The translations under genes and the position numbers were made by a program. A DNA stretch of 64,000 bases from Truepera sp. (lineage in GTDB: Bacteria; Deinococcota; Deinococci; Deinococcales; Trueperaceae): the NCBI GenBank assembly GCA_965218435.1, contig CBDCKW010000005.1, positions 352,001-416,000 of the forward strand. The letters are read 5' to 3'. The notes under the pieces are model-generated. The model was not told where the DNA came from. It did no database searches and saw nothing but the letters and a program-made list of their open reading frames with translations. Positions 5,978-10,155 of this stretch are shown here, one piece after another. Every line of letters begins with the position of its first letter. The stretch's first letter is position 1.

Positions 5978-6370
5978 ATGACCCACAAACTGATCGCGTT
6001 TTTGCTCCTAGCAACCTCTATCGTTGGACACGCCGAGAAGGTAGTACCGGGCAGCCTTCAAGACGTGCAGGCACAAAAACTGTTCGAAGCCTTAAACGCT
6101 GTTCAGGTGGAGTGTCCCGCGTCTCTAGCAGGAATAGAGAGTGACGTGCTGTGCGCCACCACCGCCCAAGACGCACCGACCTTTAGAACGATTGTGGACG
6201 CGAACACCGCGCACCTCAAACCGGTCAGCCTCTGGGCGTCGTACACCAATAAGCACGACCAGCAGCGGTCTTACCTCTATAAAGATGGCTTTATGACCCT
6301 GACCTATTTTCAAGACAAGGCCACGGGTCGCAACTTTATAGTCGTCCAGTACGTGATGCCCCACGATTAG
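5978..6370 (+). CDS. Small secreted hypothetical protein, probably leaderless
   Basis: Signal peptide, two Cys; TAGGTT lies 5 nt before the ATG. Confidence 0.65.
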   Translation: MTHKLIAFLLLATSIVGHAEKVVPGSLQDVQAQKLFEALNAVQVECPASLAGIESDVLCATTAQDAPTFRTIVDANTAHLKPVSLWASYTNKHDQQRSYLYKDGFMTLTYFQDKATGRNFIVVQYVMPHD

Positions 6371-7079
6371 ATACAGACCAACCGCAATAGGTTGCTCACT
6401 TAAGGTTGACCTGCTTGGCGACTTTTTCGTACTTCCGCTGACGTGGCGACCTCGAACCGTCGTCTCCTTACAGGCTTAGGAAGCTCTTTGTGCGCTGACG
6501 CTATCCGAACATGTTCGGGTCTACACTGGCTTTAGCTCATGCCCCTTGAGCGGCGTATAGGCGAGCGGTCCTATGCGCTTTTGCTGGCCTCAAGCTGCAG
6601 GTTTTGTTTGCCCTATACCGCCTTCCTAACATACAATTCTTGAGGACGTTTCCCCTAAGTGTTAGCTTTGTATACTCTAAAAGCCGTGCGTGGATTACCG
6701 TCAGTGGTAGACGCACGGCCTTGCTATCCTGATGTTGATGCCACGCTTTATTGGTAGCTTTCCTTACCTCTGCCGCTGACCATACTGCAAACAAAGCCAC
6801 CGACCTACACGAGAGCAGGAGCGGCAACAACGAAACTTTAGAGGCGTGCAACGGGCGCAACGCTTCCTCTTCACTCACGCCGAGGTCGGAAACCTCTTCC
6901 GTCCCACCCGTACAGGCATCTCTGCTCGGCTACGACGGCGCACCTTGATCCGTGGCTTCAACTTGTGGAACGAGCTGTCGCTTTCAGTTCCCTAATAATC
7001 AAACGAGACCGCTGAAATTACCAAGCCGTCGTAGCTTGCCTTGCTCCATCCAAAACAACTTGATCCTGGTATGTCGTTG

Positions 7080-8018
7080 TCAAGTAGAAGTGAGACTCAA
7101 AACAGGATATTTGGTCCGACTCAGATGTCTAAAAAGCTCACGAGCGATATAGGTTTTCAGGATCCGTAGTGAAGCCCGCTGTGTCTTTCCACGAGCTTTA
7201 AGTTTTGCTAACAGTGCCCTGGTCCTTTTATCACAACGGCTTCTCGTCAGCGCAACGATGTGCAGCGCCCAATTCAAGCGACGGTGGCAACCGTAGTTGA
7301 GTTGCATCCGGCTATTTCTACCGCTGCCTCGTTCTACTGGAGCAGCGCCGCAGTAGCTGGCGAACTGGCCTTCGTTGGCGAACCGCCCAATATTGCCTAC
7401 TTCACCTAGGATGACGCTGGCCACCACGGATCCGACGCCTAAAAGCTCCAGCAGTGTAGGAGCAAAGGTCTTCACCATCATCTTCATCTGTGTGGACAAC
7501 TCGGCTAATTGACTCTCTAAAACTTGAATCACCTGCACTAAGGCAGAGCGAGCAGAGGAACCGCCGGCAAGGGCTTGCAACGCCATCTTGTTGGCTTTAA
7601 GTTGCTCGGATAGGCGGCGTTGTGTCCGGGTAAGGTCTTGAAACTCCCGCTGGGATTGGCTAGGTCGAAACACGGGCAGTTCAGGATTTGCTAGAAGCGC
7701 CCTGGCGGCATTTGAAGCGTCCACAACATCATTCTTCTTCCGGCTTAAACGAGCCCGGTATTGACTCGTGAGGTTCGGAGGAATGTGGTGGACGACCTCA
7801 CCGTGCTCGAGTAACGCGCTTACAAACGGCAAGATGAAACGGTTACCTGCGCCTTCGATAGCCCAACGACGCTTCACGAAAGGAAGCGCGAACTGGTGAA
7901 GTCGTGCCAAACCCGCGGCGTCATTCGAGACTGTCAAAGCTGTGAGCGTTACGCCGTTCTTGTCTAGGGCAGCTACGGTATGGCTGTCTGGATGCGGATC
8001 AAGACCTATCGTGATCAT
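7080..8018 (-). CDS. IS110-family DEDD recombinase/transposase
   Basis: IGLDPHPDSH, WAIEG, KKNDVVDA (DEDD); LGVGSVVA, FASYCGAAPVERGSG (Tnp-domain Ser). Confidence 0.93.
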   Translation of the reverse strand: MITIGLDPHPDSHTVAALDKNGVTLTALTVSNDAAGLARLHQFALPFVKRRWAIEGAGNRFILPFVSALLEHGEVVHHIPPNLTSQYRARLSRKKNDVVDASNAARALLANPELPVFRPSQSQREFQDLTRTQRRLSEQLKANKMALQALAGGSSARSALVQVIQVLESQLAELSTQMKMMVKTFAPTLLELLGVGSVVASVILGEVGNIGRFANEGQFASYCGAAPVERGSGRNSRMQLNYGCHRRLNWALHIVALTRSRCDKRTRALLAKLKARGKTQRASLRILKTYIARELFRHLSRTKYPVLSLTST

Positions 8019-8034
8019 GCGCTACCTCCTATGA

Positions 8035-8185
8035 TGAGGCAGGCACAGCGTACGCATGTCTGAACGGATCATGCCAACGTATCGGCACCCTGGTATCCGG
8101 CGATGCGCCGTGCCCCACTCATAGCGGGGTGTGCAAATCAAGTTGTGGCCATAAACGGCTGACGGAACCTGGGCAACACCCCATG
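8035..8185 (-). ncRNA. Putative IS110 bridge RNA 1 (ends approximate)
   Basis: Structured non-coding end with segments matching the element's flanks (GGTTCCGTC, reverse complement of TCAAGTTG) and its donor ends (ATACCAGG, reverse complement of TCTG). Confidence 0.8.
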
Positions 8186-8198
8186 CTTGTTATACAGA

Positions 8199-8372
8199 CG
8201 GAGCCCCCTGCCGCTTGCGCTCGCCACACTTCGGGGCCTGTACCCGGGGCAGGCCGAGTGGAACCTCATCATGGCTGGCGCAGTTATCACCGTTCTTCCA
8301 ACGATCCTTGTGTTCTTGTTTGCCCAACGTTGGGTGGTCGAAGGTGTGGCTGCTTCGGGGCTGAAGGGGTAG
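8199..8372 (+). pseudogene. 3' fragment of a carbohydrate ABC transporter permease
   Basis: LPLALATLRG...WNLIMAGAVITVLPTILVFLFAQRWVVEGVAASGLKG* is a typical MalG-type C-terminus; the 5' part is missing. Confidence 0.8.
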
Positions 8373-8629
8373 ACGTACCGTTCTCGCCCTATGCAGCTAC
8401 GGTGTGACTGTTTGGGTGGGGATCAAGACCAATGGCAATCATGCTGCCTTACATCTCATATGAGAAGGCGGACACGGCATGCGCACGTCTGAAGGGATCA
8501 AGCCTTATGGCACCCTGTTATCTGGCGATGCGCCGTACCCCACTTATGGGTGAGGGTATGCAGATCAAGTTATGGCCACACTGTCGGGGCTGACGCAACC
8601 CGGGCAAAACCCTCAGCTTGTTACACAGA
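8373..8629 (-). mobile_element. Truncated second IS110: intact non-coding left end plus about 24 transposase codons with a premature TAG
   Basis: From 8442: MIAIGLDPHPNSHTVAA*GENGTS versus MITIGLDPHPDSHTVAALDKNGVT in the full copy; upstream non-coding region homologous to 8019-8198. Confidence 0.85.
8465..8617 (-). ncRNA. Putative orphan IS110 bridge RNA 2 (ends approximate)
   Basis: Same scaffold as 8035-8185 with altered loops; guide GGTTGCGTC (8592-8600) is identical to its own flank plus core (8628-8636). Confidence 0.75.
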
Positions 8630-8702
8630 CGCAACCCATAAAGGTGCTGGGCATGCTCCACGTTAGGAGAGCGAACGGCGTACGGTCGCCGCGAGCCTCG
8701 AG

Positions 8703-9611
8703 TTACCGACCGGCGGGCACCACGATGCGAGCGCGGGCGCGGCGGCGTTTTCCCTCAGGGATAAGCAGCACGAAGTTGGAGAACCGGCTCTTGAAGACGT
8801 GCACCACGCATGGGACGGGGCCGTGGAGTCCCAGCAACGTCAGATCGGTGTCGACGTCTTCGAACGCGCCGCCTCTCGGACCGGCCAGGGGTTGGAGGAA
8901 GTCGACGCTCGCAGGCAGACCTTCGGGGCGCAGCCAGGCAGGGAAGGTGCGCGTGAACGCCGCCGACTCGTGCAGGCGCGTCACAGGGTAGTACGCGCCA
9001 ACGCTAGTGACGAGAGGGGTCGTGCCGAGAACCAGCATCGCGCAAGATTCGGGATGACGCTCGACGTAGCGGCGGAGGGTGGCGTGGACCGAGCCGCCGT
9101 ACACCCGGGACAGCTGAAGCGGCGTGCGCAACTCCAGCGAGAGATCCCGGATGTCACGGTCGAACCGTCCGCCTTGAAACATAACCTCGGACGCGAACCG
9201 GTTCGCCTCGGCCTCGAACAGGTCTTTCACGTCGTCGGAGAGCGTCGATTCATTGTCGAGGTGCAGCATGATGTCGCGTTGCCAGGGGAGAACCTTATGG
9301 CCGATCTCGTGCAGCGTGACGAAGTTCTGCTTGGCAGCGTTGACAGTGGTGTCGAGGTAGATGACGCGCTCGCGCAGGTCGACCATGCCCATGGCCTTGC
9401 GCAAAGCGGACGCGAGCAGCTTGTAGTTGCGCGTGAAGAACCCCTCGTGCGGCTCGGTCAGGTTGATGTCCTGGGAGACGACGAGTTCCGCGCAGGCGAG
9501 CAAGTCATCAATGGGGGTGGGAAGGCGGTCGCCGACGCCAGCGCGCTCCAGAAGCAGGCGGGCGTAGCGCGCGACCTCGTCCTGCTCAGCCAAGCTTTGC
9601 CTTACGGGCAC
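8703..9611 (-). CDS. ImmA/IrrE-family Zn metallopeptidase (CapP-like)
   Basis: NFVTLHEIGHKVLPW (HExxH) and FEAEANRFASE; overlaps the upstream HTH gene. Confidence 0.88.
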   Translation of the reverse strand: MPVRQSLAEQDEVARYARLLLERAGVGDRLPTPIDDLLACAELVVSQDINLTEPHEGFFTRNYKLLASALRKAMGMVDLRERVIYLDTTVNAAKQNFVTLHEIGHKVLPWQRDIMLHLDNESTLSDDVKDLFEAEANRFASEVMFQGGRFDRDIRDLSLELRTPLQLSRVYGGSVHATLRRYVERHPESCAMLVLGTTPLVTSVGAYYPVTRLHESAAFTRTFPAWLRPEGLPASVDFLQPLAGPRGGAFEDVDTDLTLLGLHGPVPCVVHVFKSRFSNFVLLIPEGKRRRARARIVVPAGR

Positions 9612-9969
9612 GCAGGAACGTCAAGTACTCGGCGAGCGCCTCTTCTTCTTCAAAAGTCAGGTTCTGCAGGGTGGACATCGCGGCACCGGCCAGTGAACGG
9701 TGTTGGTCGGCCTGCCTCTTCACGAGGTACCCGGCGGCCTGCATGAGCTGGTCGTAGTTTACTTGGTACAACTCGGCGAGCTTGTACAGCTTGTCGGGCG
9801 ACGGCTTCTCGATCCGTCCGGTCTCGACCTGGCTGAGATAGGCGTTGCTGATGCCCGTCGCTCGCTCGACGTCCTTGAGCGTAAACGCGTGCAGTTGCCG
9901 TAAGCGGCGTAGTTCGGCCCCGAGGACGTTCTCGGCGGCCGGGGTAACGGCTTCGGTCGTGGCCATCAT
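9586..9969 (-). CDS. XRE-family HTH repressor (CapH-like)
   Basis: LRRLRQ...TLKDVERATGISNAYLSQVETG HTH; C-terminal LTFEEEEALAEYLTFLR helix of SinR/CapH type. Confidence 0.88.
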   Translation of the reverse strand: MMATTEAVTPAAENVLGAELRRLRQLHAFTLKDVERATGISNAYLSQVETGRIEKPSPDKLYKLAELYQVNYDQLMQAAGYLVKRQADQHRSLAGAAMSTLQNLTFEEEEALAEYLTFLRARKAKLG

Positions 9970-10155
9970 CTTCCTCCTCGTTGCTGACGCTGACGCGCGG
10001 CACCCTTCTGACCGCGTCGAGCGGCACGGAAGGGGTAGGCACCGTGGACAGAACTGCCGGAAGCGACGGCGTCGTGCATATACGATACACCAAGCGCGGG
10101 CGGGAATTATGTCCCCTTTGCCCTGCTAGTCCTCATCCAGTTCTAAGCAGGGCTA

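Follow-up and report, generated by a model that had tools for sequence, protein, structure and literature searches.

The 64,000 nucleotide stretch analysed here (called the window) is part of contig CBDCKW010000005.1 (C5 below) in the Truepera sp. assembly GCA_965218435.1. On its minus strand, positions 7062 to 8198 hold a short mobile element with a single gene, a recombinase of the IS110 family, preceded by a long non-coding left end. Comparison of its sequence with related elements leads us to read it, with a probability of about 90%, as an intact insertion sequence (IS) of the IS110 group that would encode a guide-bearing bridge RNA in its left end, and thus as a natural, well-supported case of RNA-guided recombination by a system that is already known. 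The element and its immediate borders contain the following features, given in the direction of the minus strand:

8199-8205, minus strand: left target GGCTCCG, the 7-bp tip of an IS6-family terminal inverted repeat, separated from its rest by the insertion
8197-8198, minus strand: left copy of the TC core (junction reading)
8189-8196, minus strand: start of the element after the left core, TGTATAAC (junction reading)
8189-8194, minus strand: putative -10 box TATAAC, 2 nucleotides (nt) after the left core, position conserved in relatives
8029-8195, minus strand: bridge RNA region, full-length match to the covariance model R1 (102.6 bits, E 1.1e-29)
8126-8182, minus strand: target-binding stem-loop with outer stem 8182-8173/8134-8126 and inner stem 8159-8157/8150-8148 (helices 1 and 2, compensatory changes in 11 of 12 pairs)
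8161-8169, minus strand: left target guide (LTG) GGTTCCGTC, 7 nt plus core, matching 8/9 to left target plus core
8138-8146, minus strand: right target guide (RTG) ACAACTTGA, complementary to TC plus AAGTTGT, 9/9 (against 7063-7055)
8136-8137, minus strand: handshake guide UU of the target loop, its first nucleotide pairing with donor base A 7064 just 5' of the core (covariation in relatives)
8042-8114, minus strand: donor-binding stem-loop with outer stem 8114-8100/8055-8042 and inner stem 8086-8084/8075-8073 (helices 3 and 4, compensatory changes in 15 of 17 pairs)
8089-8096, minus strand: left donor guide (LDG) ATACCAGG, matching the right end of the element in 8 of 8 positions
8059-8062, minus strand: right donor guide (RDG) CAGA, complementary to TC plus TG at the left end, short with 4-5 contiguous nt
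8057-8058, minus strand: handshake guide CA of the donor loop, its first nucleotide pairing with target base G 8199 just 5' of the core (covariation in relatives)
8025-8030, minus strand: Shine-Dalgarno sequence AGGAGG before the ATG at 8018-8016 (sequence reading)
7080-8018, minus strand: IS110-family recombinase of 312 amino acids (aa), assigned with Pfam, NCBIfam, an alignment of relatives and a profile alignment to IS621
7078-7083, minus strand: putative -35 box TTGACA, overlapping the stop codon 14 nt from the right core, with CTTGACA at the same distance from the core in relatives
7064-7072, minus strand: left donor ATACCAGGA, the final bases of the element (junction reading)
7062-7063, minus strand: right copy of the TC core (junction reading)
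7055-7061, minus strand: right target AAGTTGT, positions 10-16 of the IS6-family inverted repeat (aligned with IS6 repeats)

The recombinase matches the Pfam families DEDD_Tnp_IS110 (PF01548, E 5.3e-19) and Transposase_20 (PF02371, E 1.5e-18), and scores 150.3 bits against the NCBIfam model NF033542 'IS110 family RNA-guided transposase' (cut-off 140). An alignment of 13 relatives shows no variation at D7, E55, D97, D100 and S232-G233, and a profile alignment places these residues on D11, E60, D102, D105 and S241-G242 of IS621, the catalytic residues reported for that enzyme (Hiraizumi 2024, PMC11208158). The assignment of S232-G233 comes from this profile alignment, the single-sequence alignment to IS621 being offset by two residues at the Ser-Gly pair. 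IS621 itself is a distant relative (single-sequence phmmer E 2.7e-8); a profile of the relatives, compared with solved structures, finds IS621 (8wt6) with E 1.2e-25 and ISCro4 (PDB 9t56) with E 1.3e-23. A preliminary description of this DNA had called the recombinase compact. Its length of 312 aa is correct, which is only slightly shorter than the 326 aa of the IS621 recombinase (Hiraizumi 2024, PMC11208158).

Including both copies of the core the element extends from 7062 to 8198, or 1,135 bp if the core is counted once. Like other IS110-group elements it has no terminal inverted repeats, the same dinucleotide, TC, at both junctions and a long non-coding left end, here 178 nt before the open reading frame (ORF), compared with 16 nt after it at the right end. 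TC is the sole sequence common to both junctions, and the LTG ends in TC and the RTG in GA, as does the second right guide, which supports TC as the core; it is also read at the left junction in 19 of 20 aligned relatives, the remaining one (L036) having CT. The junction strings given in the preliminary description were right in every position, and an element is indeed present in the extent it had proposed, 7056-8205, but that span takes in the flanking halves of the target.

The non-coding left end has the conserved structure of a bridge RNA. Relatives were collected within the taxonomic family and, more widely across bacteria, in a set with a single genome for each species. The consensus of 20 aligned left ends from several phyla has two stem-loops, both of which contain a large internal loop and, inside it, a short hairpin. 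Bases can pair in 92.3% of the cells that this structure assigns to helices, compared with 25-48% if the partners are slid by one to three columns; compensatory changes are seen in 26 of the 29 pairs, none of 500 shuffles attained any of these measures, and G:U pairs occur on the minus strand only. Five related left ends are located on C5 (A, the element described here, and B to E), and together with L007 they form the group of six that was left out of the model R1. Built from the 14 other left ends, R1 nevertheless matches A over its full length, and it also matches copy B (78.2 bits). The predicted RNA is likely about 155 nt long, running from about 8185 to 8040. A 5' stem-loop ahead of the target loop is absent, since only 6 nt (8188-8183) separate the -10 box from the first stem. 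The same spacing is found in most relatives, with an insert at this place in L014 only, whereas in the published consensus of 103 orthologues a 5' stem-loop precedes the two loop-bearing stems (Durrant 2024, PMC11208160).

Each of the two loops carries segments that can be read against the flanks or the ends of the element. In the target loop, the lone mismatch of the LTG is a guide U facing a C of the top strand, which corresponds to a U:G wobble with the bottom strand. On the other side of the loop, the segment at 8145-8138 is the complement of TCAAGTTG, and extending it by one position gives a match of 9/9. The guide segments follow the strand rule published for IS621, in which the 3' side of the loop pairs with the top strand over 4-7 nt, core included, and a longer right target guide has already been noted in some orthologues (Durrant 2024, PMC11208160). 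As a test of chance, the 178-nt left end was shuffled 20,000 times with its mononucleotide composition kept. A 9-mer of the LTG type with at most one mismatch was present in 703 shuffles (3.5%), the exact 9-mer of the RTG in 6 (0.03%) and the exact 8-mer of the LDG in 59 (0.3%). Thus, three of the guide matches are individually unlikely to have arisen by chance, and the RDG is not significant alone.

Further evidence comes from the relatives, in which the guides change together with the sequences they read. In 19 elements, alignment columns were used to define the guide segments, each of which was then set against the flanks and ends of its own element. Excluded from the counts were L036 (CT core, right end off the contig), L010 (a near-copy of L024 with a disrupted ORF start), L028 and L029 (left end truncated), and L031, L035, L038 and L040-L047 (partial or distant). 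For the right side, 12 elements have a recognisable right end; that of copy C is disrupted, and B, D and E have none. Permutations were made among representatives, 15 for the LTG and 11 for the right side. The LTG agrees with the 7 nt of the left flank beside the core at 83 of 105 positions (shuffled 40.0 +/- 5.5) and the RTG with the right flank at 61 of 77 (shuffled 29.4 +/- 4.7), and in neither case did any of 20,000 permutations reach a value as high. For the LDG and the right end the agreement is 87 of 88 positions (shuffled 76.4 +/- 2.4; 4 of 20,000 as high). The signal is weak for the RDG and the left end, with 45 of 75 positions (shuffled 39.0 +/- 2.1; 89 of 20,000 as high); by reading, the second base of this guide, A or G, changes in step with the donor base that directly follows the core, T or C, in all but one of 19 relatives. 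Since the relatives are not independent, all of these permutation figures overstate the significance somewhat.

Individual cases illustrate the same behaviour. Within the genome, left flank and guide change together, with TTGCG in B and D and TTCCG or TTCTG in A, C and E, and in L007, which is 83% identical, the flank AAGTTAT is accompanied by a matching change in the guide. Guide-target mismatches in A, C and L026 are U:G wobbles, with a U in the guide facing a C in the top strand. This natural retargeting among relatives suggests that the guides are programmable.

The nucleotides following the right guides give a further line of evidence. In IS621 the handshake nucleotide 3' of each right guide pairs after strand exchange with the base preceding the core in the other DNA molecule, and it must not pair with the cognate one (Hiraizumi 2024, PMC11208158). 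This pattern is found here: the handshake nucleotide of the target loop forms a Watson-Crick pair with the last donor base in 12 of 12 elements, using three pair types, and with the cognate target base in 0 of 19. That of the donor loop is a Watson-Crick partner of the last left-target base in 17 of 19 (plus one wobble and one mismatch) and of the cognate donor base in 0 of 12.

The layout of target loop and donor loop that the preliminary description had recognised is therefore borne out by the covariation of the structure in the 20 left ends, by the covariation of guides and flanks and by the R1 match. Both checks proposed there on homologous sequences have now been carried out, and both gave a positive answer: folding and covariation analysis of the ends supports the two-loop structure, and the guides covary with the flanks in other copies. 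The LTG and LDG lie where they had been placed, with the same number of matches, and the RTG, described as complementary to core plus right target at 8138-8145, is found there and reaches 8146. The right target guide is also longer, as had been suggested, with 7+2 nt.

The target itself belongs to another mobile element. A genome search with the 16-bp target predicted from the guides gave matches that form inverted pairs on C5. One such pair bounds an 854-bp element, the ORF of which encodes an IS6-family transposase (Pfam DDE_Tnp_IS240, E 3.8e-33; NCBIfam IS6, 197.6 bits with a cut-off of 125). Thus, the target corresponds to positions 1-16 of an IS6 terminal inverted repeat with the core at positions 8-9, and its consensus, GGYTSCG-TC-AAGTTRT, is identical to the outermost 16 bp of the IS6-family repeat. 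The remains of the element that was struck can still be seen next to A:

6780-7061, plus strand: remnant of the struck IS6-family element, consisting of the C-terminal 70 residues of the transposase (6780-6995) and the inner part of the right inverted repeat

The IS6-family transposase of L048 is 54% identical to the coding part of this remnant (6780-6995; E 1e-23). Beyond the 7-bp repeat tip to the left of A, positions 8206-8372 are the 3' end of a MalG-like permease gene, and a contig of lower depth that is homologous to 8206-8375 diverges exactly at 8206. Unoccupied IS6-type inverted repeats are present on the same contig, including a perfect match of 16/16 at C5:534939. This perfect target for A is one end of an inverted pair, a 160-bp pair of IS6-type repeats (C5:534939-535098, L050) that has no transposase in between and resembles a miniature inverted-repeat element.

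Other members of the group are located at similar sites. In L007, L008, L030, L033 and L039 an IS6 transposase ORF lies directly beside the right end, and the target guides fit the local variant of the repeat each time. In 13 further loci (L034, L027, L026, L024, L016, L011, L017, L019, L012, L029, L028, L009 and L010) an IS6 neighbour at the right end was not found; these have other neighbours or none. One of them, L027 from Chloroflexota, has a recombinase frame (923-2800) that has no stop inside the element and continues for 626 codons into the flank, where an IS3-type ORF (rve, HTH_21) is encoded on the opposite strand. We lean slightly towards the view that some bridge-RNA IS110 elements form a coherent group that has specialised in IS6-family ends, inserting 9 bp inside the repeat, with a target loop naturally rewritten to the local variant. 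To about the same degree we favour a distribution of this group over Deinococcota, with the window, L007 and probably L008, which is from a genome of the window's own family, and Acidobacteriota, with L030 and L033/L039. If this is true, these elements would be RNA-guided hyperparasites of another transposon family and would likely disable the IS6 end that they strike. Their position next to IS6 elements might also allow them to travel with these. It would in addition be a minimal format, with an RNA of 155 nt lacking the 5' stem-loop, a TC core and guides of 7+2 nt on both target sides. Literature searches aimed at bridge RNAs with a TC core and at IS6 inverted repeats as a target of IS110 elements gave nothing relevant within their limited scope; the supplementary tables of Durrant 2024 may list such elements.

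The ends of the element suggest how its RNA could be expressed. If the two ends were joined they would read TTGACA-N18-TATAAC, and a promoter would thus be rebuilt across the junction in a circular form, as reported for IS110 elements (Durrant 2024, PMC11208160). A promoter scan of the integrated locus found no promoter-like site upstream of the left end. The arrangement would also agree with the weak expression of bridge RNA reported for integrated copies (PMC13626964). By analogy with IS621, the element would excise as a circle in which the joined ends drive synthesis of RNA and recombinase. A recombinase tetramer together with the RNA would then bring the circle junction and an IS6 inverted repeat together. 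In the first loop, the 9 nt of the LTG and the 9 nt of the RTG would together read the 16-bp end of the IS6 repeat, and in the second loop the 8 nt of the LDG and the short RDG would read the right and left ends of the element itself. Strand exchange would take place at the TC core via a phosphoserine intermediate, resulting in insertion 9 bp inside the IS6 end in one orientation.

Several observations weigh against a functional bridge-RNA element. The CAGA of the RDG is present at 8059-8062 as the preliminary description had it, but a match of these 4 nt is at chance level taken alone, as it occurs in 8,725 of the 20,000 shuffles (44%). The LDG does not pair with the core, unlike in the published IS621 model: its 8 nt are followed by one unpaired base and then by the inner stem UGCC, and there is no conserved TC. 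As a single sequence the left end folds no more stably than its shuffles (z = -1.23), and in the minimum-energy fold the LTG is paired with the RTG, so that the loop is not open. An Rfam scan of 6000-10000 gave just a chance match to an internal ribosome entry site (IRES). Some relatives match their flanks poorly, with 3/7 (L032), 4/7 (L012) and 4/7 (L014) for the LTG and 3/7 (L009) for the RTG, and L027 is mismatched at the handshake position of the donor loop. None of the public runs listed is an RNA run, and neither a circle junction nor an empty site was found in the contigs of four of them, though contigs alone could not reveal either. In the contigs of two likely source runs both junctions are at full depth, and the joints listed there are other left-end copies aligning across A and B. 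Finally, A is the sole intact copy of its sequence and a perfect target is unoccupied, so that activity in this strain is putative.

The last points raise the possibility that A is a genuine bridge-RNA element which is now a resident relic and no longer transposes in this strain. The exact sequence is there once, and its DNA identity to the single further full-length relative in the genome is 75%. A recombinase gene is missing from five of the genome's seven left ends, near-perfect targets are unoccupied as well as the perfect one, and the integrated element has no promoter-like site upstream. On the other hand the ORF is intact with all catalytic residues conserved, all guides match the present flanks and ends, and both junctions are precise. 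Furthermore, integrated IS621 also shows weak bridge RNA expression and inefficient excision (PMC13626964), and a low copy number is therefore not evidence that an element is dead. Overall, we regard the relic as a possible but rather unlikely explanation.

Much less probable is that the protein recognises the four segments as DNA and that the stem-loops only regulate translation of the recombinase. The minimum-energy fold does extend the second stem towards the Shine-Dalgarno region, and the case for an RNA rests on sequence comparison. Each loop, however, has one sense and one antisense segment arranged around a hairpin, the mismatches in A, C and L026 are wobbles of the U:G type, and the handshake positions covary with the other DNA molecule. 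Pairing of RNA with DNA predicts all three, and a site read by protein would need none of them. In addition, the protein is homologous to the recombinases of IS621 and ISCro4, both of which have been solved with a bridge RNA. A mere chance resemblance of the non-coding end to its flanks, for which the RDG alone would speak, has a negligible likelihood and is refuted by the rarity of the other three matches in shuffles and by their recurrence with different sequences in relatives.

The bridge-RNA element A is accompanied by several incomplete relatives in the same genome. Copy C is the full-length relative mentioned above, with 80% amino-acid identity, and D and E are left ends only. Truncated copies have the following positions:

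8373-8640, minus strand: copy B, 76% identical to A and lying 230 bp upstream as a truncated copy (about 8443-8640), with intact bridge-RNA region (R1 match 8458-8626)
C5:313910-314081; C5:423733-423905; C5:360458-360626; C9:1403841-1403998 (L051); C9:773924-774082 (L052): left ends of the bridge-RNA type without a recombinase gene

The recombinase gene of copy B is cut after about 26 codons, at the point where it meets the oppositely oriented fragment of the MalG-like permease gene (8206-8372). The left flank of B, GGGTTGCG-TC, agrees with the LTG of this copy in 10 of 10 positions. In copy C the right end is cut two bases before the core (…ATACCAG; L002 about 1452-1515, C5 near 96.9 kb). It is abutted on the same strand by a different IS110-family ORF (242 aa, DEDD_Tnp_IS110 only), so that one IS110-type element apparently lies in or at the end of another. 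A displaced IS6 repeat beyond this second element was not found by BLAST of the examined loci against the IS6 copy.

The five left ends without a recombinase gene break off either inside the donor loop or no more than about 80 nt from the start codon, and a query of the genome with the DNA of the whole element found no fragment that consists of the ORF only. Among 128 genomes of the family, matches to the model and to the recombinase are mostly 1:1 (8 and 8 in G024, 3 and 3 in G026), and the genome studied here (G000) is exceptional with 7 and 2. In two loci from different genomes, L010 and L051, an interruption of the ORF follows directly on ATGGTCAT, and the insert starts alike, suggesting that a small repeat element inserts there. 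C5 (685 kb) holds the five left ends nearest to A and all examined IS6-type repeats, none of these being on C9 (3.9 Mb); C5 may be a separate IS-rich replicon.

Outside this genome, the nearest named relative is in a Truepera metagenome-assembled genome (83% identity), and others were found in Acidobacteriota, Chloroflexota and Rubrobacteraceae. One relative is present in seven identical copies in G024 and another in three in G026. The junctions of the G024 copies were read by analogy with the ends of A, and on that reading TC is found on both sides; alignment of these copies alone cannot place the junctions, as conservation extends into the flanking target. Next to the IS cluster in the window, a regulator with HTH_3/HTH_31 domains (127 aa) is followed by an IrrE-like protein with an M78 peptidase domain (302 aa) on the minus strand (8703-9969).

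We conclude that the element is a new, distant member of the IS110 bridge-RNA elements with a TC core, guides of 7+2 nt on both target sides, an LDG that does not pair with the core and a predicted RNA of about 155 nt that lacks the 5' stem-loop. For the bridge RNA or seekRNA of IS110 elements, the literature already contains the strand rules, the handshake guides, the promoter divided between the ends and longer right target guides. The guide logic of IS621, with four guides and two handshake positions, is thus readable from raw sequence in a very distant recombinase. The TC core, the longer target guides and the shorter RNA could widen the set of usable bridge recombinases. The same IS6-tip target recurs in other phyla together with matching guide changes, which would represent natural guide reprogramming with one mobile element homing on another. 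Insertion into the terminal inverted repeats of a different mobile element has a parallel in IS4321 and IS5075 of the IS1111 group, which insert into those of Tn21-family transposons. There too an element of the IS110/IS1111 type targets the inverted repeat of another mobile element; the group and the host element are different ones, and the non-coding region is located downstream.

The closest comparison is with IS621 from E. coli. In both elements the RNA, predicted for ours, is encoded in the left end upstream of the recombinase gene, and in both it has two internal loops whose 5' side pairs with the bottom strand and whose 3' side pairs with the top strand. They likewise share a 9-nt LTG with the 2-nt core in it, a handshake position on the 3' side of each right guide and the DEDD plus Ser-Gly catalytic residues, and here too a promoter may be divided between the two ends. 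The element described here differs from IS621, as far as that system is set out in the sources cited, in having TC instead of CT as core, an RTG of 7+2 nt compared with 4-7 nt for the 3' side of the loop (Durrant 2024, PMC11208160), an LDG of 8 nt that is shifted outward and leaves the core unpaired, and an RNA of about 155 nt without the 5' stem-loop compared with 177 nt. Its target is an IS6 inverted repeat, whereas REP elements are an example of an IS110 target in Durrant 2024 (PMC11208160). ISCro4/IS622 (Perry 2025 preprint; PDB 9t56) belongs to the same family and, as described there, uses the same guide logic with handshake guides; it has a CT core and is related to the element by the profile match reported above (E 1.3e-23). 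The seekRNA of ISEc21, also of the IS110 type, is an upstream non-coding RNA with segments matching both target strands, and, as here, the target is not duplicated if one repeat copy is counted as part of the IS (Siddiquee 2024, PMC11187229). ISEc21 is a different element with a different target, set beside ours by its description only.

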